A DNA stretch of 60,000 bases from Malacoraja senta (Eukaryota): the NCBI GenBank assembly GCA_038087875.1, contig CM075988.1, positions 27,406,001-27,466,000 of the forward strand. Direction: 5' to 3'. Position numbers and translations under genes: made by a program. Below, in pieces: positions 31,656 through 56,110 of the stretch (the stretch's first letter is position 1; the number at the start of each line of letters is the position of its first letter). The notes below the pieces were generated by a model. The model worked only from the letters and a program-made list of their open reading frames with translations. It searched no databases and was not told where the DNA came from.

Positions 31656-32901
31656 CATTTCCTCCACATATGCTGCCTGGCTCACTGCGATCCACCAGCA
31701 CTTCATGTTTTGCTTAAGTTTCCAACATGTACATTTTAGTATCCGTCATTTAGCCACGACTGGGCACCAATACCTCCTGGTGGCTGTTTCTACAAATGCA
31801 TCCGAAGATTAATCAAAGTGACCATTGGCCCTGTAGAAACAAGCTAGGTGAATTTGTGATGGAAAACAACATGGGAAATAAATGGAACATATTATTGTAC
31901 AAGTCTTCACTAAAGAGGACAATTAGCATCCCAGAAATAGGTGAGAAATAGGAGTGGGGAACTCAGGAAAATTACAGTTACCAATTTAGCGTGACTGAGC
32001 AAATTTCCAAACTGTGGGCTGACGTCTCCAGATCCTGAAGGTTTCACTCTAGAATCTAAAATGAAGTGGCAAAAGATGGTTGATGCATTGGTTTTAATTC
32101 CCATGCAAAAGCAGGAGATGCAACATATATCCTTCTATTTCCTTTATTTCCTGCTGTGCAGAGCTCAAATCGTAACTCGGGTAGACATGACTTGATCTCC
32201 ATGTTTCCAATTTACAGTACTGAATTTGATGCTGATGAATTGGGGGAGATTACTTTGCAGAACATCTCCATTTTGTCCCAGAGTGACCTTACAATCCAAT
32301 GACCTATTTAAATTCTTCAAGCTAATCTGATCCAAGCAGTTCTAGCCTCATACTCCTTTTCCAACAAAGCTCAATGCAAGATCAAGGGATCCTAATAACC
32401 AATGATGTGTTGTTATTCACTAGCTATTACCACCATACTTCAGCCAACACCACCTGACATTCCAACAATCCTGGTTCCCACCCTATCAGGACTTTCTCTT
32501 GGCCCTTCTCTCCATACTTTCCATATCTAAATTACTAAAAGTAAGATCTTGACCACTTCCAATTTTCTGTTTCATGAGTTTTGAAAAAGCGCTGCCACTT
32601 ACGGCTGTGATTTTTGGCCATCTTACTCAGAGTCCCCCTCTGCTGCGCAGGACAAGAGGATTTTTCCCATCGATGAAAAATAAAAGAGTTATTAATGTTT
32701 TAAAAATGTTGACATTCTCTATGCTGCCCCTGCTGGTGGGAGGGGGGAGGGACTATAAAACCCGGAAGTGTTGTGCCTCACACAGTCTCTGCAAGATGGA
32801 GGAAGCGAGAGGGTCACGTCTCTCCGAGCTGTTAATAACACTGAACACACGTCTACTTAACTGTGAGTGCCCTTAATGTGGTTTAAAAATGAAAATGTGG
32901 T

Positions 32902-33087
32902 TGCTTTGAAAGGCTGCACTGCAAAAATGGCTGTTGTTGGTGGTGGTAACTGCTTTGAAATGCTGCACTGCAAAAATGGCTGTTGTTGGTGGTGGTAACT
33001 GCTTTGAAAGGCTGCACTGCAAAAATGGCTGTTGTTGGTGGTGGTAACTGCTTTGAAAGGCTGCACTGCAAAAATGGCTGTTGTTGG
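32902..33087 (+). repeat. 49-bp minisatellite (~3.8 units) inside Helitron 1
   Basis: Unit CTGCTTTGAAAGGCTGCACTGCAAAAATGGCTGTTGTTGGTGGTGGTAA. Confidence 0.9.
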
Positions 33088-33471
33088 AAATTTGACAACT
33101 TCCTGTTTGCACTGTATATTGATTTTAGATAAAACACTACCACTTACGGCTGTGATTTTTGGCCATCTTACTCAGTCACCCGCCGCTCATCAGGTGCAGA
33201 GGATTCTTCCCATCAATGAAAAATAAGTGTTATTAGTGTTTAAAAAAATGAGAATCTCTCTCCTGTCAATCACACAATGCAGGCCACGCCCCTTCCAGTT
33301 GGAGGGCGAGGGATTATAAAACCCGGAAGTGTGGATGTGGCTCAGTCTCTGCAAGATGGGTGAGGGAGAGGTCATGACTGTCTGAGCTGTGAATCAACTG
33401 AACACACTGAATGCCTACTGAACTGTGAATGTGGTGTTTATGTGGTGTTTTATAGTGTTTTTATGATGGTT

Positions 33472-34015
33472 TCACCCTGCTTGAATTGGTATGAATGCAT
33501 TTGAATGTGGTGGCCTGGCACCCTGTATGAAATGGTATGAAACTGCATTTGAATTTGGTGGCCTTGCACCCTGCACGAAATGGTATGAAACTGCACTTGA
33601 ATTTGGTGGCCTTGCACCTTGCTTGAAATGGCAAGAAACAGCACTAGCATTTGGTGGCCTTGCACCCTGCTTGAAGTGACATGAAACTGCACTTGAAATT
33701 GGTGGCCTTGCACCCTGCTTGAAGTGGCATGAAACTGCACTTGAATTTGGTGGCCTTGCACCCTGCTTGAAATGGCATGAAACTGCACTTGAATTTGGTG
33801 GCCTTGCACCCTGCTTGAAATGGCATGAAACCACCCTTGAATTTGGTGGCCTTGCACCCTGCTTGAAATGGCATGAAACTGCACTTGAATTTGGTGGCCT
33901 TGAACCCTGCTTGAAGTGGTAGGAAACTGCACCTGAATTTGGTGGCCTTGCACCCTGCTTGATATGGTAGGAAACTGCATTTGAATTTGGTTGCCTTGCA
34001 CCCTGCTTGAAATGG
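33472..34015 (+). repeat. 48-bp minisatellite (~11 units) inside Helitron 1
   Basis: Unit GAAACTGCACTTGAATTTGGTGGCCTTGCACCCTGCTTGAAATGGCAT. It produces the 16-aa periodic ORFs. Confidence 0.92.
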
Positions 34016-36760
34016 AATTTCAAGGAATAGCCGTGAGTCAACTGCTAGCCCACCAGCCGTGAGTGAGCTGCCAGAAAGTCCCTTCAGCCCACAATACCCA
34101 TACTAGCGCTCCAGAAAGTCCCAGCCACCAATATTGGAATTGGTGGAGAGGTGGAATATTGCGTTGGGGGACCAGCCCTCCCGTGTGAACATGGGACCCA
34201 ATGGGTCCCACTTAGTCTAGTTCGATATTAAAATCTGCACCTAATATTTCACAAGTTCTGAGATGCCCAGTGTTTTCTACACACAGATCCCAATTTCCAC
34301 CATTTTATTTATTTCAGATTCCAGCATCTGCAATACTTTGCATTGGCTTATTGCAAAGGGAGTATTTTAATCTACAGCAATGGATCATAACTTGTACAAA
34401 TAAAGATCCATAATTACATATGTAGGACTAATTCTACATTGTGATAAATAGCCATACAATCCAGCTACCCCGGCATGACAGCTGATATCTTACGAAAGCA
34501 ACAACTCTTTCCCTCATGCCAGAAGACGTCATTTAGAAATATTGCATTTATCAGGAAGGCAAGGATAACCTTAGCATCAAATATATTGCCAGGTCACACC
34601 ACAGCTTCCACTGTTTAGTATCCTTAACCTCAGTACTTCTTAGTGAAATAGATATTACCTGGAAATTGCTACCCCTAACACTCACTCATATTTGCCAGCA
34701 GATTAAACTAGTGAGGAAATTGAAAGCCAAGTCTACAGCCTTCACCCAATCACTACAAAATTCACAAATAGTTCAACATTTTGAAATTTTAGTTGCCACT
34801 TGGTATATTGGTATCATTCAGCAGTTTGCTTTGTAAAGTATACAGCCCAAATTCCACATTAATAAACAATGTGGATTAGAAGGCAGATAGTGGATGACAT
34901 TTAAATCTGGCACATTATTAAAATTCAGAATACAAACGATTGTGATGAAGAATTTCATTGACAGCTTATAACTGCCTGAACATCAAGTCAGTTCTTGGAC
35001 TGTCATAATAGATTAAAATTCACACAATTTTAGCATTAGCAAGAGATGCAGCCTTGGGAAAGAAATAATGCACTCCCATTAAAAGCTACAAGCAGGAAAT
35101 TCATTGTGCAGGGCATGAAGCACTCTTAAGATTTCTCAGCTATGTGTAATTATTAACATCAAGATTCAGATGTAGATTATCTTTCCTCTCATTCACAAAC
35201 AAGCAAAAACAAATGGTCTACTGCTAATCCATTTGCAAAGTGAAGAATGTCAAATGGTTCCGATCTTAATGATCCATTTAAAACATTGGCCATCCTCAGA
35301 AGTTATTGACTCATGACTAATAGGTGGAAGACCAAACACTTGCAGCAGGATCTCTACAGATTTACAACTCAAGATTTATATTTAGAAAAAGTGACTGTAT
35401 TGCATTAACATTTTTAACATTACCTACATTACAAAGCAGCACCTTAAAGAGTCAAGAGTCATATGGCACAGAAACAGCATTCAGTCCATGTCACCTATAT
35501 TGACTAAGTTGCCCACCTGAGCTAGTTCCATTTTCTTGCATTTGGCACATAAATCTCTCAAACCTTTTCTGTCCATGTACTTACTTAAATGCATTTGTAA
35601 CTGTAACATTGTAACTACGTGTCTCTACCACTTTACCTGGCAAATAGAATCACGCTGCAACTCCCAATCAGCCTCAAGCTGGCCATCATTGTATGTAGTT
35701 GTAAGCTGTAATGCATTTGCATCTCTGTTCATAAACAAAAGTGATCAGCTCTTTGAATTATGAGACTCAGAGGCTTAGAGCCTGAAAATTCAGACCCAAT
35801 TTTATACTTCTCACTGGACTTTTAGTTTAGTTTAGAGATACAGCATGGAAACAGGCCCTTCAGCCCACCGAGTCCGCACCAACCAGTGATCCCCACACAT
35901 TAACACTATCCCACAAGAGACAAGAGTTTGATCCTGACCTCGGGTGCTGCGTGTGGATTTTGGACGTTGGCCCTGTGTCCATGTGAGTTTCTTGCCCTCC
36001 AGGTAGGTTAATTGGCTGTTGTAAATTAAGAGTGCGTACAGAGTGGATACAAAGTGGGATAACATAGAACTGTGTGAACAGATGCTCAAAGGTGGTGTTC
36101 ACTCGGTGGGCTGAGGATCTGCATCCAAGCTGTATCTCTAAGTACCAAGAAATCCAAATGGCACCATCAACATCCCATCCAGGTTACTGAAATTCAACAT
36201 TACTCCATGCCAGTCTTTGTTAGTCACAGATTTGGAACAAAACTCAGGACCAAGGTTATGAATTTATAAAAACCAAACTAGGGTCAAACCAACTATCATT
36301 CCAGGCACTCATCAGCCCGTGTGTACATTTTTAAATTTTTTTATTTGCCCCACAGCTCCTTTTAATTTTGCCCCTCCCACCTTCAAGCTATCCCCTCTAA
36401 TATTTGATTTTTCCATCCTTGGGAAAAAAGGTTCTGACTGTCTACCTTGTCCATGCCTCTCATTATTCTACATTTTATATATTTTACATGGCGAGGAGCA
36501 ACTTTGAAATTTTGAAACAGAAAATAGCTCACAAGACAATAAATTGCAGCAGAAAATTAATGTTGAATATATTTTTATCTGGTACGTGAAGAATAGCAAT
36601 TGACATGACAATACATCTTCAATGAAAAGTAGATTCCAAAGTTGTCAGAACTGAAATTCAGATCACAAACATATCATTCTATTAAAATATTGCACATTTA
36701 AAAAGTTGAAAATATAGCTGTACAACAGCTAATTAAAATGAAGTTCAACTAGGTACAACT

Positions 36761-36766
36761 TTTATT
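36761..36766 (-). terminator. Probable RBM7 polyadenylation signal (AATAAA), implying a ~1.8-kb 3' UTR
   Basis: TTTATT on the + strand at the end of a repeat-free AU-rich stretch that follows the RBM7 stop. Repeats resume just beyond it. Confidence 0.45.
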
Positions 36767-38525
36767 TGTATTTACAATTCTGCAATATTTTTCTCAGGAT
36801 ACTTTCCTACATCATTCCAAAGAAAAACAGGAGAGCATTTATTTTAATACAAAAGCTGTTAGGATATAGAAGAGTAAAGCAGCCAACACTGCACTGGGAA
36901 AATTCTAGTCCTTTTGAAAAACTCAAGTTCTGCATTTCTCTCACCCATCCCCACCCTAAAGATACATTTTTTAAAAATTCAAATAAAAATTGCCTAAATT
37001 TAGTTTATAAAACATTTTTCATTACACCAAAAATACAAATTTGTTCTTCATATGCAGCTACAAATAGGTACAAAGCAAAGTTGAATAGTTTGGAGAGCCC
37101 AGTTTTACGAGGAAAACAAATTAGAATATTTAACTGGAAGCAGTGTTAAAAATATTGACTGCAGAACAAAAAAATGAATAAGCAATATAACTGGAAATAT
37201 GTGAACTCTACAATTATTCACTGTAACTAGAATTTACCTGCGCGAAAACTACTACTCACTCATCCCCACTCCAAACAGGAGATTAAACAGCGTCCTTTTA
37301 TATTCTCAATACATACTGATAAAACAATTGGATGATTTGGAAGAAAAACAGCAACCATAATACAAGAATAGATGCCACTCCATTGGATTAAGTATGGGGA
37401 TCAATGCCTGGTATTAAATATTGTAAAATAGAGTTGTAGACAAGTTGTAAAACAAGATGGGTTAAATTAGCAGTTACTTCTTTCCCACATGCCAAACTGC
37501 TAAATTAGATTCAATTTAAGAATGAGCCAACTTCCTATGCAGGCTCAGATACTATCAAATTTAAAATCTCCTTTATAATTCTTAGTCTTCGCTAGAGTTG
37601 ATCCTTTAAAAGCAGGTCCTCCGCAATTATTCAATATCCAAACCATTATCCTATTCTGAAGTAATCTTTTTTGCAGATTGATGGCAGCTTGGAGAATTCC
37701 AATCTATCAAACACTGGTCATTGTGCCAAGGAAAAAACCCTTGTGACGCAAGAATTAATTACAAATACAGTGGAATTCAATTGTTTTGACTGGAAGTTCT
37801 AAGGTTCACGATAAGGACTGAACAGTTACAGGCAGATCCTCCCTGCTGCCAGACTTTTAAAAAGATACACACACACCAACTGATTGATGTGCTGAGGTAT
37901 ATGTAGAGGAGACAAGCAGAGCACCTGATGCAGGTCAACAGTTAAAAGGATTGGGCACTGCTACTTATTTATTCAGAGGTTGGTCATTGCTCCCAAGATA
38001 CATTAGAAGGTAAAATGGAAGAAAATGCTGATTTATATAATCAATATAAAAAGTCCAGTTCTATTCTTTGCATTAGTACTCAAAACTATTGCTTTCACAT
38101 TACAATTACATTTCTACTCACATGCAAGATACAAATCATTTACAAGTTATTTGCTCTGTTGTACATAATACTTTCATTAAAACTGCAAAGATAATTCCAT
38201 AACGGGCGCACCATGCACTGCAGAACCAGAATCACTTAATGAGTTGGGGGGGGGGAAGAGTCAGAGATAATTTAAGTAAAATGCAATGTTATACAACTCC
38301 GTCACTCTCATCCTGAGCAATGTGCAGAACAAGTTTACAAGTACTACTGAAGCAGAAACTGGCACTGATGAAAAATTGATATTTATGTAAACAGAAAGAG
38401 GAACTCAACTTGTACATTAGAGAAAATAATTTTTTTTTTTTTTTAAACAATTTTGTTAAATTGCAATCTAATCTTCCAGAGAAAATTTGAATTGGTTAAC
38501 TCCCACCATACAACACTGTGTCAGT

Positions 38526-38942
38526 TTACTGCCGATTTCCTCGCCATCTCCCACCTCTAGAGAGCTCTCTTTGAGCATTATATTCATGCTCCCAATTTCT
38601 GCTGTGATGAGAAGTTTGGTCTTGTCGGTACTCAGACTCACGGTTTCCCCGATAGTGCCAGTCGGGATTGTGATCTTGGAAACGAGCCTCTCGTGGGTAT
38701 TGACCGTTGTCAGACTGATAGGAACTATATGCTTGTTGCCTTTGGGTGCCAGATATTTTTTCTACATTCCACGCATTTTGTGAATTTGGATTGGCCAAAT
38801 TCTGAGGTGCCATTTGCGAGCCAGAAGGCATTCCTCGATTTGTTTGCTGCTGGTTGGAACGATTATTAATGCTTGGCTGTTGCACAGAAGAACTGCAACT
38901 CTGCTGCCCTCCCCTGGCATTCTGCTGCCACATATTATTTAT
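38526..38942 (-). CDS. RBM7: RBM7 terminal coding exon 5 (Q/N/R-rich disordered tail)
   Basis: Acceptor ttttgattttactttcag|ATA, phase 0. Open to TAA at 38526 (INNMWQQNARGG...SRGGRWRGNRQ). Total CDS 831 nt, 276 aa. Confidence 0.85.
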   Translation of the reverse strand: MNNMWQQNARGGQQSCSSSVQQPSINNRSNQQQTNRGMPSGSQMAPQNLANPNSQNAWNVEKISGTQRQQAYSSYQSDNGQYPREARFQDHNPDWHYRGNRESEYRQDQTSHHSRNWEHEYNAQRELSRGGRWRGNRQ

Positions 38943-39014
38943 CTGAAAGTAAAATCAAAATAGTTTAAAACGTGCATGGTGCTCAATGAAATACAATAAA
39001 CAGTAAAAGTGTAA

Positions 39015-39960
39015 ACATAGAAAATAGGTGCAGGAGTAGGCCATTCGGCCCTTAAAGCCTGCACCACCATTCAATATGATCATGGCTGATCATCCAACTC
39101 AGTATCCTGTACCTGCGTTCTCTCCATACCCCCTGATCCCTTTAGCCACAAGGGCCACATCTAATTCCCTCTTAAATATAGCCAATGAACTGGCCTCAAC
39201 TACCTTCTGTGGCAGAGAATTCCAGAGATTCACCACTCTGAGTGAAAAATGTTTTTCTCATCTCGGTCCTAAAAGATTTCCCCCTTATCCTTAAACTGTG
39301 ACCCCTTGTCCTGGACTTCCCCCAACATCGGGAACAATCTTCCTGCATCTAGCCTGTCCAACCCCTTAAGAATTTTGTAAGTTTCTATAAGATCCCCCCT
39401 CATTCGTCTAAATTCTAGTGAGTACAAGCCGAGTCTATCCAGTCTTTCTTCATATGAAAGTCCTGACATCCCAGGAATCAGTCTGGTGAACCTTCCCTGT
39501 ACTCCCTCTATGACAAGAATGTCTTTCCTCAGATTTGGAGACCAAAACTGTATGCAATACTCCAGGTGTGGTCTCACCAAGACCCTGTACAACTGCAGTA
39601 GAACCTCCCTGCTCCTATATTCAAATCCTTTTGCTATGAATGCTAACATACCATTCGCTTTCTTCACTGCCTGCTGCACCTGCATGCCTACTTTCAATGA
39701 CTGGTATACCATGACACCCAGGTCTCATTGCATCTCCGCTTTTCCTAATTGGCCACCATTCAGATAATAGTCTACTTTCCTGTTTTTGCCACCAAAGTGG
39801 ATAACCTCACATTTATCCACATTATACTGCATCTGCCATGCATTTGCCCACTCACCCAGCCTATCCAAGTCACCTTGCAGCCTCCTTGCATCCTCCTCAC
39901 AGCTTCGTGTCATCCGCAAACTTGGAGATGTTGCATTCAATTCCCTCGTCCAAATCATTA
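39015..39960 (-). mobile_element. CR1 LINE 3' fragment (RT C-terminus) in RBM7 intron 4
   Basis: Peptides CNISKFADDTKL, WQMQYNVDKCEVIHFG, LYRVLVRPHLEYCIQFWSP. CR1 3' tail. Confidence 0.9.
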
Positions 39961-40054
39961 AAGTAAAGAAGGGTCTCGACTCGAAACGTCACCCATTCCT
40001 TCTCTCCGGAGTGCTGCTTGTCCCACTGAATTACTCCAGATTTTTTACAAGACA

Positions 40055-40838
40055 AGATAGACAATAGACAATAGGTGCAGGAGTAGGCCATTCGGCCCTT
40101 TGAGCCAGCACCGCCATTCAATGTGATCATGGCTGATCATCCCCAATCAGTACCCCATTCCTGCCTTCTCCCCATATCCTCTGACTCCGCTATTTTTAAG
40201 AGCCCTATCTAGCTCTCTCTTGAAAGCATCCAGAGAACCCGCCTCCACCGCCCTCTGAGGCAGAGAATTCCACACTCACCACTCACTGTGAGAAAAAATG
40301 TTTCCTCGTCTCCATTCTAAGTGGCTTACTCCTTATTCTTAAACTGTGGCCCCTAGTTCTGGACTCACCAAACATCGGGAACATGTTTCCTGCCTCTAGC
40401 GTGTCCAAACCCTTAACAATCTTATATGTTTCAATGAGTATCCTCTCATCCTTCTAAACTCCAGAGTGTACAAGCCCAGCTGCTCCATTCTCTCAGCATA
40501 TGGCAGCCCCGCCATCCCGGGAATTAACCTTGTAAACCTACACTGCACTCCCTCAATAGCAAGAATGTCCTTCCTCAAATTAGGGGACTAAAACTGCACA
40601 CAATACTCCAGGTGTGGTCTCACTAGGGCTCTGTACAACTGCAGAAGGACCTCTATGCTCCCATATTCGATTCCTCTTGTTATAAAGGTCAACATGCCAT
40701 TTGCTTTCTTCACTGCTGTACCTGCATGCTTACTTTCATAGACTGATGTACAAGGACCCCCAGATCCCGTTGTACTTCCCCTTTTCCCAACTTGACGCCA
40801 TTTAGATAGTAATCTGCCTTCCTGTTATTGCTACCAAA
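40055..40838 (-). mobile_element. Second CR1 LINE 3' fragment (different subfamily)
   Basis: Peptide RKDILAIEGVQCRFTRLIPGMAGL. (TTGTCTA)n tail. Confidence 0.85.
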
Positions 40839-40839
40839 G

Positions 40840-41640
40840 ATTTACAAGATACATTTGTCATATGTACCAATTGGTACAGTGAAATGTGTGGTCGCCATAC
40901 AGCCATACAAATAATAAAGACCATACAACACGATAGTTTTTAACACAGACATCCCCACACAGCGGGATCAAAGTTTCCCACTGTGAAGGAAGGCTCCAAA
41001 ATTCAGTCATCCTCCTCCGTTGTCCTCCCGTGGTCAGGGGGCTCCCGAACGCCCCCGCAGTCGCAGTTAAGCAGCCGATGTTGAGGCCCGCTCGCCGGGG
41101 TGATGGACGTCCGATGTCGGGACTGGAGGACATCCTCAACGGCCACCTCCTATTAGAGTCCGCGGCTCCCGAAGTCCACAGGCCACGCTGGGCAGAGATT
41201 CAACACTGGCAGCCTTCGGCAAAGGGCCCCAGGTCTCAGCGATGTTGAAGTCAGCGCCGCCCGCACTGGAAGCGCTGCAGACCACAGCTCCGATGTTGAT
41301 GCAGCAGGTCCAAACGGCGATCCCAGGTAAGGCATCGCCCGCTCCGTGGTGAATCCAGCGCTGCGCCGCCGCTGAAGCTCTGGTCCGGATCCCCAGCAGG
41401 AAAGGCCGCTATAATCCAGGTGGTAGGCCGAGAGGAGGGGGGGCGAGGATGCAACTCGGAGAAATAGTCGCATCATCGCCAGGAAGCGACTGAGAAACGG
41501 TTTCCCCCTTACCCTACCCCCCTCCCCCACATAAAAAAGTTAAAGAAACATACTTTTAAAACTAACTAAAAATAAAAAAGATAGAAAAACAAACAGACTG
41601 TAGGCAGAGGCTGCCTTCTGTGCAGTGCCTTTAGTGGCAT
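40840..41640 (-). mobile_element. GC/CpG-rich non-autonomous retroelement
   Basis: Same architecture as 18595-19206: GC head, T-rich tract, GC-rich body, LINE-like tail (..CTGTATGGC...ATTTCACTGTACC..ATGACAAAT). No ORF homology recognised. Confidence 0.55.
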
Positions 41641-42470
41641 TTTTATGTCTATCTAAGGAAATTGAAATGCATTCCAGTGCCAATAGTGTGACAAAGCAAG
41701 TAGAAAACAAAGGTCACACCACCAAATACCAATGACCTGAGAGACAAAGAATGATTAACTCAAACTGGATAAACACCCAAGGAGAAGGAGCAGAGGGGAG
41801 TTAACTGGATAGCCCTTTTTTTTTTTTAAACCCTGCACTCTGCAGAAAGAGCAGAGGGGAGAACTGGATAGCTCTTTAAAACAAACAGCACAGGAATGAA
41901 GGACAAAATTGCCCTTTATCGGCACGATTCTGAATAGAAAACCATTCTAATTAAATAGGGGCAAAGGAACTTCCCATTAAATTCAGTATACAGCAGTGAG
42001 CTTCTTCATTACTCCCTCGACAGATGCAGCAAATGACAACATTTGTTACACATGCTATATTTCAATCACAAAATTAAAACTAAATAGTTTGGTATTCATC
42101 TCAGGCCTGGCGGCCCATGCAAAAGACCGTTGAATCCAGCTCACAAATTTGATTGCTATTAAAAGATAATCTGAAATTGAAGAAAACCACCAGATGCTTT
42201 CATCCCACGACTTGAATCCTTTTCAAATATCAAGCAACATGAGCACTCACGTCTGCCCCAAACTTTACCACTTCAATAAGCAAACTGGATAAGAAGCACT
42301 GGAATTTGTTATTAAGACCGAGAACTCTTGCTCTCATCTCCACCATCCCTGCCCACCAGATCATAATTTCCTCCAGAGGGCCACTGACACCTCTTCATTA
42401 AAAATATATTTTGAAAATGAAGTTTATTGCAGGATCAAGACATACTTTTTCACAAACATGATTCACTCAC

Positions 42471-42537
42471 CATGACCTGCCTTTGAAGATTATCAGGTGT
42501 AGAAAATGATCTCTGTACATTTTGTGGAGTTGCAAAT
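42471..42537 (-). CDS. RBM7: RBM7 coding exon 4
   Basis: Strong acceptor tttccctttttccttcccccttggtag|, 67 nt. Encodes FATPQNVQRSFSTPDNLQRQVM, matching the RBM7 motif QRSFSSPENFQRQAV. Donor ATG|gtgagt. Confidence 0.9.
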
Positions 42538-43226
42538 CTACCAAGGGGGAAGGAAAAAGGGAAACATGAATACAATGCAGAAAGTAACAGACATCTCAAA
42601 ACTATGCAAGTTCATTCAGAGCAGTACAATTCGCACACAGAATTTCATAACTACTTTTATCAGCATTCTTCCTGTTACCACTGAATGAAACAACTAACAT
42701 GCGTTTTGAACTAATAGCACTCTTCTAATCTCCATAACAAATACACAAGCAAATTCCTGAAGTTAAATTATCCCCATTGCTATAATCAGAAACTGAGAGC
42801 CTATTTTCACCACAGAAATGTACAGTATGAAGTACATTTTGTATCAACCAAAGAATGAAAGTGAATGTTGGTGGATGAATTAACTTTATTAAAACAGAAC
42901 TACAGATAGAACAGGTGAGAAAACAGATAGAACAGGTGAGAAAAAAGTTTGAGGCCAACCTTAATTGGGGTTTTTTTAATTAAAGAAGTCTAATGTCAGG
43001 ACCAGATTTTGCCACAATTAACTATAGTTTTGATTTGGGCACAATAGCATCTGCTATTAATTTTGGACTTGACACCCTAAAGAACCCAAGAGACTAATAA
43101 ACTCTAATTTCTGATAACATTTAAGCCATTATAGAACCAATATACACAATGGATTAGCTGGTTTCATACTTAAATTATAGCAGTATGTAGAATAAAAATA
43201 GCAGAATCACTAAATAAAGATTATAC

Positions 43227-43317
43227 CGATTATTATTGAACTGGCTGGTCTGGTAGGGGCCAGGAGAAGCATTTGAATTCTGAGATTGGCTTCCTTCCCG
43301 AGATTCATGACAACTAC
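43227..43317 (-). CDS. RBM7: RBM7 coding exon 3
   Basis: Polypyrimidine acceptor ttttttgttctcatcctag|, 91 nt, phase 1->2. Encodes (G)SCHESREGSQSQNSNASPGPYQTSQFNNN(R). Donor CG|gtataa. Phases fit exons 2 and 4. Confidence 0.75.
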
Positions 43318-44159
43318 CTAGGATGAGAACAAAAAAGATTTGATTGTAATTCCAAGTACAAACACAATACAATTTAACATTCCCATGTTACATTGAAAAA
43401 ACGATGACAATTCATTTTACCCACACAAAACCAACATTTATACTATTTTTCACAATTTAGCAGCTCAAATTTCCATAATTGGCTACTTTAAATTGCCCCT
43501 AATGTAGCTGGGTGATAGAATCTGAGGAGAGATGATAAAAATGCAAAGAAAATAAAAATAAAATTAATGATTAGTGCATCTGGATGGTTGATGATTTGTG
43601 CCAACTTGGTGGGCCGAACGATCTGTTTCTTTGCTGTATGACACTATAATTCCTGAAAGATAAGCACCATCTAGCTACCTTTCAGGCAAAAGCCAAAAAT
43701 CGAATTGTTTTTCAGGTTAGCTATGACAGCAATATTATTCCACATCTCAGCTGCATTTCTCATACCCGTAATCTCTACCACAGAAAAAGGACAGATGGAA
43801 CAAAATCAACTGCATTCCTCTCAAACTTGCCAACACTGGGCCAAAGTGCTGGAACTCCTTGCACAGTATTTTCACCAGATTCGCTACAGGGATTTTTTTT
43901 CTTAATGCCTAATAACATACTTTGCTTAACACTCAGAATGTGTTTCCATGAACAAGACCCCAGAGAATCTGTGCTAATTTATGGCAGACGCATTACTAAG
44001 AGTGTTGCAGGGCAGAAACTGGGCATGAACCCCTATCCTCCTCAATTAAATCAGACCAGCTACATGCATATTAGTCTATAAGAGGCGGAAGGCTGATATA
44101 TTGTGGCAAATGATTAGCCAAAGACTTTTAGTTATCAATGAGGCACTAGTTGGATAAGT

Positions 44160-45720
44160 AGAATTCTACAGCACAGAAAGAGTCCTTGCAGCTCACCACA
44201 GTCATGTGATCCCTGCCTAATCCCATTTACCTGAAATAGGTCAGTATCCTTCTATAACTATAGGTTTAAGTGCCTATGGAGATGCCTTTTAAATGTTGTA
44301 ATTGTATTCACATCTACCACCTTCTCTGGCAGCTCATTCCCCATAACCCAGTGTGCAAGATGTGTCCCACAGATCTTCCTAACATTTTGCACTCATGTTG
44401 TACACTTTTCTGCCCATGTGAACAAAAATACCAATCTTACATGAAGAGCTCTAGAATGTTAATTTATCATATGTACTAGGAACTGAAAAATGAAATTCTT
44501 ACTTGCTGTTGCTACTTTACAGAACGTTAACACAACAACAATATTCTAATACTCCAATAAATCATCAGTAATAATAGGTATACCTGCAAATGCCCTTCTC
44601 TTTTATAAACTTCTGCAAAGTAATTCCTCAATTTCCTATATTCTAGCAAGTTAACCCAGCCTCTTCAATGTTTCATTATAAGTACAAGACTTCATTTCAG
44701 GTAATTCCTGGTGAATCTCATCTGCACTCTCTCTATTGCTGCATCATTCCTGTAGTTCGGCGACCAGAACTGTCTACAATTCTCCAGGAAATTGATGAGG
44801 CCCACTACACTAGGATAGAAATGTGGAGCTTCACTGTAGTCATGTCCATAATATGCAGGTCATCGATCACCATGACCATCCACTCATCATCCCTCTTTCC
44901 ACTATTTACACCACTACTGTCTCCACGTCTATCTAATAAAACACACTGCACTTCCTCAGCAAGGCTCAGACCTATACCCCAGAGGGAGATACAGAGACAC
45001 CACCACTCTTTCCTCCCTTCAAGTCACACAGATAAACTTCTCCTCTAAATATAATTTTGAGCATGATGAGGACCTTCACGATCTGTTCAATACAGCTAAG
45101 TATGAAGTGTAGTATTCTCGGAAGTTAAGCAAGACTTGCACAGTAAATAGCAGGGCTCTGGTGAGTGTTGAAGGACAGAGAGATGCAAGGATACAAGCAC
45201 ATAGTTTCCTGAAAGATTTGACGCAATTAGGCAGGGTTGTGAATGCAGCGTTGGTAACACACTTAGAGTATTATGCAAAGCTCCGATCACCATTGGAGGA
45301 AGGATAACATGAGCTGCAGAGTAATGAAAAGATTCATTAAAAAAGGGCTTGAATTATAAAGAGAGACTGGGTCTTTTTTCATGGAGCATAAGAGGCTGAG
45401 AGATGATTTTATAGAGGTATGCAAAATCATAAGGTGTATCAGGTGAATGGTTAGTCTTTTTCACTTATTACGAGAGTAAAACTAGATGGCAGAGTTTTAA
45501 GGTGAGAGGGGGAAGATTTTTTTTTAAAGGGCCTGAGGGTCAACTTTTTCCCCATCTGGTGGATATACAGAGCGAGCTACCAAATGAAGTGGTAGAAACA
45601 AGTACAAATATGCTTAAGGCATTAGAGAGAAATGCGAGTAGAAAAGGATTAGAGAGATACGAGCCAAGGCAGATAACACTGGTTCAGGTCGGCAACATGG
45701 GCCAAAGGTGGGATAAGTAA
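44160..45720. mobile_element. Degraded CR1 fragments in RBM7 intron 2 (both strands)
   Basis: Similarity to the other CR1 3' ends in this window. Confidence 0.55.
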
Positions 45721-46202
45721 ATGTATGTGTGGACAGGATGTACAAACAAGGGGTGCCCCCTCTGCTTCCCCTTTGTACTGCCCTCCGTGAGATATAATGG
45801 GCTTCCACTCCATCAGTCTGCACATGAAATAGATCATCATTGTCGACTTTCAGCTTTCACATAGCTTCAAAGCATCACAACATTAGAAACTTGCAGGCTC
45901 AATACAGAGGTAGATATTTTCCAAATCAAGAAATACTAATGTGTCCTGAGGCAATGATTTTATACTAGCTCCGTTTTCAATTTAATTTCCAACACCCAGT
46001 CTCAAATAAAAACCATTGTAATCTCAGGTACTACTTGCATTCTCCAATCAAGCATCCCAATCCCAGGCTTCGGTTTAGTCTCTGTACTTATCAAAACCAC
46101 TACCTTAAAAATTGACTAGTTTCTCCAGAACATTTCGAATTGTTTATTGCATATTTCAAGCACCAAGCAAATATTTTGATTGACCATTATGTTAATTCTT
46201 AC

Positions 46203-46365
46203 CTGATCTGAACTGGACTTTGATTGCCCTGCCATACAACTGGATTCCATTCAGCAAATCCTTCCCGTAATGGACCGACTCCTCGTGCTTAAAATTCACG
46301 AACGCGAACAGTTTTGATTTCCCGTCTTTATCCCGAGGAATTTTTACCCCCATCAGCGGGCCAGC
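46203..46365 (-). CDS. RBM7: RBM7 coding exon 2 (rest of RRM)
   Basis: Acceptor ..taccag|, 163 nt. Encodes AGPLMGVKIPRDKDGKSKLFAFVNFKHEESVHYGKDLLNGIQLYGRAIKVQFRS(G), including RNP1 FAFVNF. Donor G|gtaaga, phase 1. Confidence 0.95.
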
Positions 46366-46998
46366 CTGGTAAACAGAAAACGAATCTGTCAATTGTACAT
46401 TGTGAAACTGCGATTTGTGGGATGCGAGGGCTGCCTCAGAGACCTGGGTTTATGTGTCGTGCGGTTTTGTAGGTAGATTGGCCTCTAAAATTGCCCCGTT
46501 TGTGGAGGAAGTGAATGAGAAGTGGGATAACAGAACTAGTGTGATGATTGGAGTGGACTCGATGGTGGGTCGAATGATCTGTTCCCATTTGTATCTCTAA
46601 ACAAGGGTTAAAGTAGAGTTTTAAATAAAGTGGTTAAAGCCTGTACAACGATTTAATCTGCAGGAGCGAGAATAAAATCCCTCCTGGGAGCCTTTCGGAG
46701 TGTAAATAACCCAAATCCCGCCAGCAGGGCAACGACTCTGCGAGACGGCGTCTGCTTCTGATTAGATGGAAACTTTGCGGGAGTTTCGTTTAAACTGAGA
46801 GCGCCGGTCAAGTTCGCCGCAGAACGAGGGGAGGGGAGGGGATATATCTGAAATCAAGCAATTCGAGGGGGAGAAAAGGGACGAAGTCCACCAGAAAATA
46901 TTACAATCAGCCCGTCCCAGGGTGTCGGCACCTCGGGAGCACAAGGGACGCGGCCGGACGAGGCAGGCCGGCGCCTGAGCAACGACAGGCCTCGATAG

Positions 46999-47126
46999 AA
47001 ACAAAATGCTGGAGTAACTCAGCGGGACGGGCAGCATCTCTGGAGAGAAGGAATGGGTGACGTTTCGGGTGGTGACCCTTCTTCAGACTGAGAGTCAGGG
47101 GAGAGGGGGTGGATAGAGGGGAGAGA
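46999..47126 (-). mobile_element. Short Penelope-derived insertion with intact minimal hammerhead core, in RBM7 intron 1
   Basis: 12-bp TSD AGGCCTCGATAG (46987-46998, 47127-47138). Core CTGAAGA-A-GGGT-CACC-ACCC-GAAACGTC at 47086-47059. Confidence 0.8.
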
Positions 47127-47157
47127 AGGCCTCGATAGGCCGCCCGCCCTCCCTTAC

Positions 47158-47250
47158 CTGGAGGAACAGCTCGAACAGGAGCTCCTCCGTCACTTTAATG
47201 TCCAAGTTCCCGATAAACAGCGTCTTATTCGCATCGTCCGATACCCCCAT
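47158..47250 (-). CDS. RBM7: RBM7 coding exon 1
   Basis: GCAGCCACC-ATG-G Kozak context. Encodes MGVSDDANKTLFIGNLDIKVTEELLFELFLQ (RNP2 LFIGNL), matching the vertebrate RBM7 N-terminus (..RTLFVGNLETKVTEELLFELFHQ). Donor CAG|gtaagg. Confidence 0.95.
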
Positions 47251-47410
47251 GGTGGCTGCAGTCCCCTGCCCGCCCGGCACCCGAGGGTAAAACCAGCCCG
47301 TAAATCCGATTAAGGCGCCTTTTTAAAAGCCGCTTCTTCCCCTTCCTCAGGCCCCGCTTCCGCCCCGCTGGTTTCGTCACCCGGGTACACTTCCGCCCCG
47401 CAAGCCTCCA
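47251..47410 (-). promoter_or_regulatory. RBM7 CpG-rich promoter / 5' UTR
   Basis: CpG-dense. Two GGGGCGGAAG(C/T)G composite GC-box/ETS motifs on the minus strand (~47355-47367, ~47388-47400) lie directly upstream of the ATG exon. Confidence 0.7.
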
Positions 47411-49625: not shown

Positions 49626-50499
49626 AACCTTGACATTTAATCGCTTAACAATTGCCAAGTCCTTGACCATCAATAGGCTGAGGATTCCCATTGACCATAA
49701 ACTCAACTAGAACAACCAGATACTGTAACTGTACAAGCAGATCAGAGACTGAGTGTCCCGAGGTGAATGACAACCCAAAGCTTTTCAACCATACACAATG
49801 CAAACGTGGGGAAATGATGGAATACTTTGCACTTGCCTGGATGAATGCAGCACTAATAACCCTCAAGAGCTTGGCATCATCTAGCACGGCAACACACTTG
49901 ATTGGCACTTTGTCCACCACCCTAAACATAATTTCCTTTCATCAACTACAAAATACACTGGCCCAGGTTACTCCAAGAGCACCTCCTAAATACATGATCT
50001 CTACCACTACATAAGGGCACAGAACCTGCAAGTTATTTTCCAGGATGTACACCATCTTCCAGGGGTTATGGGGCGAAGGCAGGGGAATTGAGTTGAGAGG
50101 GAAAGATAGATCAGTCATGATTGAATGGCAGTGAAGACTTGATGGGCCAAATGGCCTAATTCTGCTCCTAGAATTTATGAACCATCTGATTTGGAAATAT
50201 ACATTACTAGACTAAGTGCGACCCGTTGGGTCCCATGTTCACACGGGAGGGCTGGTCCCCCAACACAATATTCCACCTCTCCACCAATTCCAATATTGGT
50301 GGCCAGTGGGGGGGGGGGGGCTTTCTGGAGCGCTGGTATGGGTGTTGTGGGCTAAAGGGACTGGTCTCCAGAGGGCTGGTATGGATATTGTGGGCCAAAT
50401 GGATTCTTGGGGTGGCAGCTCAGACCCTCAAGCCTGATGTGCTGGCAGCTCACTCACGGCTGGTAGGCTGGCAGTTGACTCACGGTTATTCCTTGAAAT

Positions 50500-50805
50500 T
50501 CCATTTCAAGCAGGGTGCAAGGCCACCAGATTCAAATCCATTTTCCTACCATTTCAAACAGGGTGCAAGGCCACCAAATTCATGTGCAGTTTCTTACCAC
50601 TTCAAGCAGGGTGCAAGGCCACCAAATTCAAGTGCAGTTTCTTACCACTTCAAGCAGGGTGCAAGGCCACCGAATTCAAGAGCAGTTTCATACCACTTCA
50701 AGCAGGGCGCAAGGCCACCAAATTCAAGTGCAGTTTCATACCACTTCAAGCAGGATCCAAGTCCACCAAACTCAAGTGCAGTTTCATACCATTTCAATCA
50801 GGGTG
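50500..50805 (-). repeat. 48-bp minisatellite (~6 units) inside Helitron 2
   Basis: Same unit as 33472-34015, on the opposite strand. Confidence 0.9.
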
Positions 50806-51185
50806 AAAGCACCATAAAACCACACAAAACACCACACTCACAGTTCAGTAGACATTCAGTGTGTTCAGTTGATTCACAGCTCAGACAGAGTCGTGACCTC
50901 CCCCTCCCCCATCACGCAGAGACTGAGCCACACCCACACTTCCGGGTTTTATAATCCCCCCCCCCGGAAAAGGTGTGGCATTCATGGCATGATTGACAGG
51001 AGAGAGATTCTCAACATTTTTTAAACACTAATAACACTTTTATTTTTCTTTGATGGGAAGAATCCTCTGCACCTGATGAGCGGAGGGGGACTGAGTAAGA
51101 TGGCCAAAAATCACAGCCGTAAGTGGTAGCGTTTTATCTAAAATCAATATACAGTGCAAACAGGAAGTTGTCAAGTATAGACTTC

Positions 51186-51410
51186 CAACCATTTGCAGTG
51201 TTTTACTTCAACCCAACCCCCACCAACCATTTGCAGTACTTTTACTTCAACCCAACTCCCACCAACCATTTGCAGTGCTTTTATTTCAACCCAACCCCCA
51301 CCAACCATTTGCAGTGCTTTTACTTCAACCCAACCCCCACCAACCATTTGCAGTGCTTTTACTTCAACCCAACCCCCATCAACCATTTGCAGTGCTTTTA
51401 CTTCAAACCA
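51186..51410 (-). repeat. 39-bp minisatellite (~5.5 units) inside Helitron 2
   Basis: + strand unit ACCATTTGCAGTGCTTTTACTTCAACCCAACCCCCACCA. Confidence 0.9.
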
Positions 51411-52300
51411 ACCACATTTTCATATTCAAACCACATTAAGGGCACTCAAGGTCAGTAAAACCACACTCACAGTTTAGTAGACATGTGTTCAGTGTTATTC
51501 ACAGCTCAGACTGAGAGACATGACCCTCTCACTTCCCCCATCTTGCAGAGACTGACTGAGGCACAACACTTCTGGGTTTTATAGTCCCTCCCCCCAGCAG
51601 GGGCAGCAGAGAGAATCTCAACATTTTAAAAACATTAATAACTCTTTTATTTTTCATCGATGGGAAAAATCCTCTTGTCCTGCGCAGCGGAGGGCGATTG
51701 AGTAAGATGGCCAAAAATCACAGCCGTAAGTGGCAGCGTTTTTTCTAAAATCATGAAACAGAAAAACAGGAAGTGGTCAAGATCAGACTTTTAGTAATAT
51801 AGATTGTCAATCCTTTGGTGTTACTGTTTATAATTCCTGAAATTCCTTTTTCAGTGGTACTGTGGCAGTATCATCACCACAAAGACTGCAGGTCAATGTG
51901 GCAGCTCACCACCTTCACAGGAGCAACAAGACAACAAACACAGATATGACAAGCAATGTCTTGATCCTGGAAAATGAATGCAATTAAAATACTGGAATGT
52001 TTACTGATGAGAGAGCCAGTGATGTATAAAAAAAGTCATGTCCAATGAACCAAAAAGGCGTTTATTTTACAAGAGGTTTATAAATAGTAGACAACGGAAC
52101 ATTTATTTATTTAGGCTTCCAGTCAATAGAGTTTGCCACAAGACAGAATTAGCAACACGAAAACTCGTGGAATTGAAGACAAGTTATTGATGTCTGAGAT
52201 ATTGACTGAAGCACAGTGGTGCATTTGGAAGAGCTGCTGCCTCACAGCGCCAGTGTCCCGGACCCGCTAAGTTAGCAGCCCTACATTCCATAGCCTGGTG

Positions 52301-55429: not shown

Positions 55430-56110
55430 AAGCGTCCAGTCTGACGCCGCTGCATCCCAAGCGGTGGATCCAACTGATAGAAGGTGGTCGGTAAGTCCCG
55501 GACTTGGTGCACTTCGAGAGGATGGGCGGTGGCAGCTTTGTCGGTGTCAATGAACTGCGATTTATTCTGCACCAAGGCTCGACCACGGCGACAACATCCA
55601 TCCATCTCTCTATATATCTATCTATCTCACCGTACAACAGATGAGGGAGAACCGACAGGACAACTGCAGCGTAAATGGGCATCTACAGTCAATATTAAAC
55701 AAGGCGCATCCTCACTAAATGAAGTGGGAGGATAAACAAGCCGTGGCTCAGCGCCAGGCGGAGCTCGGGTCGGCGCCCGCCTTTACGACATGTTTTTGCG
55801 ACAATGCGGGAGTGGGCGAGGTCTGTTGCTAGGCAATGCCGGAGGGCCGATTGGCCGCCATGTTGATGCTGCGTGGTCACAGGGCCGCTCTTAAAGCTAA
55901 GAGCCTACCCCTTGTCACCGCCACTCAGCTTTCCCGCCATTTCACCAACCGCTCACTCGGTGGATTCGCGCCCGCTGTCGGCCGTCCTCACTCGCCTTCT
56001 CCTCATCTACCCTTCGTCTATGGACCGGCAGCTCGGCTGATGCCCCGACGTTTGACTACCATGGCAGCACAGGACATGGCAAAGAGGATGGTCTGGGTGG
56101 ACCTGGAGGT
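55430..56110. promoter_or_regulatory. REXO2 CpG island / probable bidirectional promoter
   Basis: High CpG density, GC boxes, inverted CCAAT (ATTGG 55850-55854) and a YY1-type GCCGCCATGTTG at 55854-55865. Confidence 0.65.
55836..56108 (+). CDS. REXO2: REXO2 (oligoribonuclease) coding exon 1, with putative mitochondrial presequence
   Basis: Ends MAAQDMAKRMVWVDLE (ExoI motif; human MAAGESMAQRMVWVDLE), donor GAG|gtaact. The start is uncertain: in-frame ATGs include 55836, 55860 (gccgccATG) and 56061 (accATGg). Confidence 0.9.

Follow-up and report, generated by a model that had tools for sequence, protein, structure and literature searches.

A high-copy non-autonomous Helitron with a doubled, promoter-like left end near RBM7 in the skate Malacoraja senta

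A stretch of 60,000 nucleotides from Malacoraja senta (assembly GCA_038087875.1, contig CM075988.1, positions 27,406,001 to 27,466,000 of the forward strand; hereafter the window) contains, near the gene RBM7, a Helitron in which two related modules carry motifs of an RNA polymerase II (Pol II) core promoter, each module being followed by a minisatellite. A preliminary description of this DNA had read the element, against the background that Helitrons capture and spread host regulatory DNA, as a mobile promoter cassette producing tandem-repeat RNAs. The locus therefore raises the question of whose promoter this is, or was, and whether it still fires. We found a genuine non-autonomous Helitron, well formed and abundant, whose promoter-like left end is doubled. 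The reading that we favour, with a probability of roughly 55%, is that the modules represent an inherited and mostly silent promoter-like left end of a high-copy canonical Helitron (HLE1), doubled by the gain of a further left end.

Ends, class and abundance of the element

Two copies of the family lie in the window, copy A and copy B, in opposite orientations (Table 1), and they are 93-94% identical outside their repeat arrays. Both open with TCTA exactly where their homology begins, so that the 5' TC terminus is present in each, and the 3' CTRR terminus reads CTAG at 34217-34220 in copy A and is matched by the end of copy B. Both copies (2 of 2) sit between A and T without target-site duplication and in unrelated flanks, and the family has been mobile. 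Near the 3' end copy A has a perfect 19-nt palindrome that stops 10 nt before the terminus, which is imperfect in copy B. These features agree with the hallmarks described for HLE1 elements, namely a TC start, a CTRR end, a hairpin of 16-20 nt located about 11 nt before the 3' end and an A-T target (PMC11417382, PMC2997563, PMC4778049). An assignment to HLE2 or Helentron (DINE-like) elements was considered and rejected, since the target lies between A and T and not between two T, and by eye there is no terminal inverted repeat.

A domain scan of 9 of the element's 11 frames of at least 62 amino acids found no RepHel domain and, together with the length of 1.7 kb, this makes the element non-autonomous. 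Pfam, run on 150 of 195 frames, gave matches in two minisatellite frames only, with no passing stretch, and we treated both as repeat artefacts. In Rfam, the element had no match at E up to 1.

The abundance of the family was read from sequence runs, four of the 24 listed, all of contig type, being mapped onto a 601-bp test stretch composed of module 1, 176 bp of flank and one repeat unit. From the DNA run X1, 10,684 contigs map on it. Depth is 34 in the unique flank and sums to 6e4-1.9e6 in the bins of the element, with a sharp step at the 5' end; the resulting ratio of 1,900-56,000 is not a copy number, and both modules map onto the test stretch. Read from the X1 depth only, the family has thousands to tens of thousands of dispersed copies. 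The element is also present in the contig runs of two further organisms (H and I), and six more (B-G) probably carry it, their runs holding 0.29-0.35 of the query words, which is about the element's share.

The doubled left end and its promoter-like layout

The two modules had been described as paralogues of about 290 bp. They are indeed paralogous, and longer than that: 32549-32882 aligns with 33092-33446 at 72% identity over 369 columns. Also as described, a minisatellite follows each of them, and four such arrays are confirmed in copies A and B, those of copy B having 5.9 units of 39 bp and 6.4 units of 48 bp. The relation between the modules is best seen in copy B, where module 2 can be aligned with the terminus of the element itself, starting at base 14. 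Module 2 is thus an older left end, which became internal after a related left end was added upstream. In agreement, the units of array 1 and array 2 are weakly related (8, 149, 29 and 34 of 2000 shuffles in pairwise tests), and this weak kinship fits a module that was duplicated along with a repeat seed, each array then expanding on its own; aligning the units of all four arrays with MAFFT was uninformative. The sole long invariant run across the four modules is a sub-terminal block of 34 bp that lies outside the promoter core and had no match in viral, metagenome and prokaryote genome contigs.

Table 1. Coordinates of the Helitron copies, their parts and RBM7 in the window
Feature	Position	Strand	Remarks
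Copy A, non-autonomous canonical Helitron (HLE1)	32526..34220	+	1695 bp; between A and T; ends exactly those of copy B, flanks unrelated; depth step 32518-32538
Copy B, same family	50206..51803	-	about 3 kb upstream of RBM7 exon 1, in RBM7 orientation
Module 1, current left end	32526..32901	+	TC terminus, sub-terminal block, promoter-like core, short exon-like stretch
Module 2, older left end	33092..33446	+	without its first bases (first 13 in copy B)
Invariant block	32595..32628	+	34 bp, in all four modules; paralogue 33140-33173; candidate transposase or host-factor site
M4 motif ACTAYRNNNCCCR, THAP11/ZNF143-type	32752..32764	+	perfect; overlaps the module-1 TATA
Module-1 core	32754..32799	+	TATA 32754, ETS 32762, Inr-like A 32784, CAAGATGG 32792
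GTGAGT 5' splice-site hexamer	32863..32868	+	at +79
Module-2 core	33263..33359	+	PBX-like 33263, KLF/SP 33284, TATA 33315, ETS 33323, Inr A 33344, CAAGATGG 33352
Minisatellite 1	32902..33087	+	49 bp x3.8
Minisatellite 2	33473..34015	+	48 bp x11.4; weakly related to minisatellite 1
Right end	34192..34220	+	19-bp hairpin 34192-34210, then 10 bases ending CTAG
RBM7 coding span	38526..47250	-	exon 1 near 47250, stop at 38526

Modules 1 and 2 are called A1 and A2 in copy A, and B1 and B2 in copy B. Their motifs stand where the preliminary description had placed them. In A2 a PBX/PREP-type decamer, CTGTCAATCA (33263), and a KLF/SP match, CCACGCCCC (33284), are followed by TATAAAA (33315, and 32754 in A1), the ETS match CCGGAAGTG (33323 and 32762), the initiator (Inr) TCAGTCT at 33342, whose A is at 33344, and the YY1-like match with an ATG, CAAGATGG (33352 and 32792). 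The spacing from TATA to the Inr A, which had been said to be preserved in copy 2, amounts to 30 for module 1 and to 29 for module 2 in copies A and B alike, so that all four modules have a TATA within the range of about 28-34 upstream of an Inr position, with a consensus Inr in three of them. The full set of listed motifs is found in A2 only, and three of the four modules have lost at least one: A1 is without a consensus Inr, B1 without the ETS core and B2 without the KLF and CAAGATGG matches. Both module-1 copies also lack the segment that holds the PBX and KLF matches.

Two further features were absent from the preliminary description. One is the M4 motif ACTAYRNNNCCCR, a site associated with THAP11/ZNF143 (PMC5006282), whose only two matches in the window are in the two module-1 copies. 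The other is a GTGAGT hexamer at +79 to +83 in three of the four modules (at +83 in both copy B modules; changed in A2). These positions fit the Puffin rules, which place TATA at about -30, YY1 just downstream and a U1 site from +50 (10.1101/2023.06.27.546584). In the same work TATA is linked with tissue-restricted promoters, and ubiquitous promoters are linked with YY1, ETS and ZNF143. The modules mix TATA with ubiquitous-promoter motifs and have no CpG island (observed/expected CpG 0.34-0.51 in the modules, 0.40 in the window and 0.76-0.97 in the RBM7 and REXO2 promoters), and in this sense the term textbook promoter, used at first for the module, does not apply. The ETS site, at -21 to -13, falls on the stretch bound by the basal machinery, and the YY1-like match lacks the downstream GC bases that normally accompany it.

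How far such a layout could arise by chance was assessed with nine motif classes from the Puffin list (10.1101/2023.06.27.546584), their consensus strings being set by hand and their position windows fixed once the sequence had been inspected. With a relaxed initiator the scores of A1, A2, B1 and B2 are 5, 4, 4 and 3, and 0, 7, 1 and 84 of 4000 dinucleotide shuffles reach them; none of 292 other tiles of 380 bp reaches four classes. With a stricter panel the counts are 2, 1 and 30 of 5000 for A2, B1 and B2, and A1 scores nothing because its Inr fails. Among the 1564 Inr sites of the window under the strict definition, only 33344 and 51553 have four classes. The promoter-like layout that had been claimed is therefore beyond chance in three of the four modules. 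The real promoters of RBM7 and REXO2 score just 3 and 1 on the nine-class panel, which thus shows a non-random layout and not activity.

A reading in which no promoter ever existed here holds that the motifs came together by chance in the left end of a transposon, or that they are sites for transposase loading or methylation protection. It gains from the fact that the motifs were picked after inspection, that the panel misses real promoters, that eight of the window's 11 TATA-Inr sites are found outside the elements and that the four modules are not independent. Additionally, the reverse strands of the modules score 2-4, with 4, 3 and 3 for A1, A2 and B1, partly by counting the same two-strand motifs again. 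However, the shuffles and tiles speak against it for three modules, and the directional motifs (TATA, Inr, YY1-like and donor) all lie on one strand and in the expected order. We give this explanation very little credence.

Several side observations concern the arrays and the stretches around the modules. Minisatellite 1 has a unit of 49 bp in copy A (32902-33087) and a related one of 39 bp in copy B (51185-51413), between flanking modules that are 93% identical, which suggests fast unit turnover. The heptamer TGCACCC, which we take to fit the metal-response-element core TGCRCNC, recurs in eight 48-bp units of copy A (33565-33997, plus strand) and four units of copy B (50519-50663, minus strand), and is a single 7-mer amplified with the array, perhaps present by chance. 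The conserved stretch behind minisatellite 2 holds, in both copies, an AP-1-type TGAGTCA (34034, plus strand; 50482, minus strand) and two further GTGAGT hexamers. Also, a reverse ETS-type ACTTCCT is found near the start of three of the four modules (33098, 51774 and 51168), about 200 bp upstream of TATA.

Origin and present state of the promoter-like modules

The first part of the question is whose promoter this would be. The promoter core is set 230-270 bp into each left end, no junction being visible, and this position favours the element's own promoter. The preliminary description had assumed capture of host regulatory DNA, and this is not what the alignment of module 2 with the element's own left end, reaching to base 14 of the terminus, indicates. 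On this view, the promoter in the module probably belongs to the element itself and was doubled when a new left end was gained, a captured host promoter being the less likely source. A precedent exists in the autonomous Heli1Xen1 of Xenopus, which has chromatin immunoprecipitation (ChIP) peaks at its presumed 5' promoter and whose first ~570 bases contain, by eye, NRF1-, GC-box-, CCAAT- and X-box-like motifs (PMC12001565 and its supplement).

Capture may still be considered in the form known from the bat HelibatN3, which carries material of NUBPL: a host promoter, first exon and splice donor would have been taken up, and the element would serve as an exon trap or mobile promoter whose transcripts are spliced to exons further downstream and do not read through the arrays. 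The anatomy of the modules, with a promoter, an ATG in a strong context and, in three of the four, GTGAGT at +79 to +83, resembles that of HelibatN3 (PMC4778049), and in bats promoter captures had the highest copy numbers (PMC4224331). Against this, the homology between the modules runs on to base 14 of the terminus without a visible junction, and the ATG opens frames of only 9-26 codons that are not conserved, the ATG itself being lost in B2. Moreover, the window holds no donor for the modules (best E 0.77 for module 1, no match for module 2), and among the contigs listed there is no spliced joint at the GTGAGT donor, 372 loose ends lying outside them. We regard capture as rather unlikely.

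We propose the following course of events for the element's own promoter. The left ~350-380 bp would consist of a Pol II promoter and a short first exon, with TATA/M4, ETS, Inr, the YY1-like/ATG match and a splice donor, and would most likely descend from an autonomous parent in which the promoter would have driven the RepHel transposase. The element would then have gained a new, related left end upstream, by which the old end became internal as module 2, and the sequence behind each module would have expanded into a minisatellite. RepHel acting in trans would have spread the element. The promoter may now be a passenger of the left end that drifts with it, and most copies, probably copy A too, would be silent or weak.

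Such drift is consistent with the conservation of the motifs and with the low CpG ratio of the modules given above. Across the four modules 32 of 38 motif columns are invariant against 199 of 265 other columns (p=0.31), and orthologous modules show no motif excess either (36 of 38 against 253 of 273, and 45 of 50 against 265 of 284); the excess conservation by which the preliminary description proposed to judge its own model is thus absent. In module 1 family-wide, 20% of the X1 depth (44% in X18 and 24% in X20) has A in place of G at 32764, in the CpG of the ETS site; this change destroys the ETS core and keeps M4. The Inr base missing from A1 is present in 99.7% of the depth, the change in A1 being private to copy A. 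Among loose ends of the module-2 type (one contig in X24 and six in X20) the PBX and KLF matches vary separately.

Several points weigh against the reading that we favour. Two of the four paralogue comparisons show a motif excess (37 of 38 against 208 of 271, p=0.002; 37 of 38 against 217 of 267, p=0.01). Both include A2, which had supplied the motifs, but the excess could be a trace of earlier selection. The second-longest invariant runs, TATAAAACCC and CAGTCTCTGC with 10 bp each, lie at TATA and Inr. Family-wide, and for module 1 only, the TATA positions have no variant among 40 of the 103 rows, and the change at 32764 may be a tolerated variant rather than decay, M4 being kept. The case for the element's own promoter is one of position and precedent, and no autonomous parent was found. 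Finally, the hairpin of the right end is unexceptional by shuffling (17 of 200 in copy A and 69 of 200 in copy B; z -1.5 and -0.3), so that its position and not its energy argues for the class.

The second part of the question is whether the modules fire. The model of the preliminary description was an active mobile promoter cassette making tandem-repeat RNAs, with copy A firing antisense toward RBM7. In its favour, the layout is non-random and directional, an array stands behind each module, the motif set of A2 is intact, and an AATAAA at 51044 in copy B, just behind minisatellite 1, might terminate a short repeat RNA. The element is also contained in runs guessed to be RNA; no run labelled as RNA was listed among its carriers, which counts neither way. 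All runs are of contig type, which cannot show a transcript start; X18 is flagged as probably DNA and X20 is a guess as RNA. In the runs guessed to be RNA, three listed contigs (15, 16 and 24) bridge the predicted start with at least 31 bases on each side, so those molecules began elsewhere. This is a weak point given the nature of X18 and X20, and bridging is expected of copies read through inside other transcripts, or of DNA. The mean depth downstream over upstream of the predicted start is 0.75 in X1 (DNA), 0.33 in X18, 0.92 in X20 and 0.40 in X24, values from contigs of different species in which depth cannot rank the parts of a transcript; in X24, which has the organism code of X1, only three contigs mapped and none covers the core. 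Depth has no step at +1, and no position at which many molecules begin was listed, but we drew no conclusion from these depths; the drop in depth into minisatellite 1 was set aside because its unit differs between copies. As a separate observation, record 24 of X20, a contig of 954 nt at depth 482, carries a copy that has an internal deletion and an altered Inr/ATG region and that runs across the predicted start. This copy may be part of an abundant host transcript, the run being only guessed to be RNA.

Other evidence also speaks against an active cassette. The motifs show no excess conservation, and the splice-donor hexamer precedes the arrays in three of the four modules, which argues against the tandem-repeat RNAs that had been proposed. 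Copy A does point toward the 3' end of RBM7, as had been noted, RBM7 being on the minus strand. However, seven plus-strand poly(A) hexamers (two of them AATAAA) at 34227-35078 stand between the element and the candidate poly(A) signals of RBM7 at 36345-37973, up to the distal one, and such signals behind the element make antisense transcription into RBM7 unlikely. We consider the active cassette quite improbable.

A broader idea is that the family has scattered about 10^4 tandem pairs of working TATA/M4-ETS-Inr-YY1 promoters, with first exon and donor, across the genomes of related species, a subset of them serving as co-regulated alternative promoters, exon traps or sources of minisatellite RNA. 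We hold this to be a speculative and decidedly unlikely proposal. If it were true, copy B, lying 3 kb upstream of RBM7 in sense orientation, would be a candidate alternative first exon.

Setting in the window and relation to known Helitrons

For RBM7, copy B is the more interesting of the two, being in sense orientation about 3 kb upstream, though the gene has its own promoter, a TATA-less CpG island with GC-box and ETS sites near 47300-47400. REXO2 starts near 56070 on the plus strand. RBM7 (47250, minus strand) and REXO2 are thus divergent in the window with copy B between them; in human the two genes are presumably co-oriented. Elsewhere in the window, the plus strand at 11286-11363 matches the CPEB3 family of Rfam, a hepatitis delta virus (HDV)-like ribozyme, at 39.5 bits (E 4e-7). 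An ATG follows roughly 27 nt further on, and the ribozyme may form the self-cleaving 5' end of a long interspersed nuclear element (LINE).

The element family was not found in the literature; Repbase and Dfam were outside this search, so it may have a name there. The 15-base TATA-ETS string had no literature match, and among reports on Helitrons of skates and cartilaginous fish, judged by titles and abstract openings, none concerns this family. Helitrons that bear promoters, that are rich in minisatellites and that have double left ends have each been published already. The native promoters of vertebrate Helitrons are, at the same time, poorly mapped. A many-copy left end with a clear start-site layout in two paralogous versions constitutes a natural mutational series for the rules of the core promoter, and the left-end module offers a handle for finding the autonomous parent.

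The doubled left end has its closest counterpart in HelenXT233 of Xenopus tropicalis, which has two non-identical left ends as a direct repeat in one element (PMC11417382). HelenXT233 is an autonomous HLE2 element with a target between two T and inverted repeats, whereas the skate element is a non-autonomous HLE1 whose inner end lacks its first bases. Composite Helitron ends have also been described in bats (PMC4224331). Two elements of Xenopus laevis share other traits with it (PMC12001565): Heli1Xen1, also an HLE1 of a vertebrate, starts similarly with TCTAT..TAAAA and is presumed to have a promoter in the left end, and Heli2Xen is made largely of minisatellite arrays. Both differ from the skate element in sequence and motif set, as compared by eye only. 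The same paper cites DINE, bivalve and bat elements as minisatellite-rich Helitrons, and sharks and skates go unmentioned in its available parts. In C. elegans, Helitron minisatellites that give rise to periodic An/Tn clusters (PATCs) are likewise arrays borne by Helitrons with a proposed link to transcription, but there it is host-gene transcription that remodels the repeats into 10-bp-periodic insulators (bioRxiv 10.64898/2026.08.08.743475).

The nearest known system in overall anatomy is HelibatN3 of Myotis, a non-autonomous HLE1 with many copies that carries the promoter, the first codons and the splice donor of NUBPL, so that a promoter, an ATG and a donor lie behind the left end as they do in the skate (PMC4778049, PMC4224331). 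HelibatN3 has an identified host donor and demonstrated exon-trap activity, whereas the skate element has no donor in the window, and its module is doubled with a minisatellite behind each copy. If 1% of the copies of the skate family fired, they would supply a considerable number of start sites specific to the lineage, as HelibatN3 does in bats.

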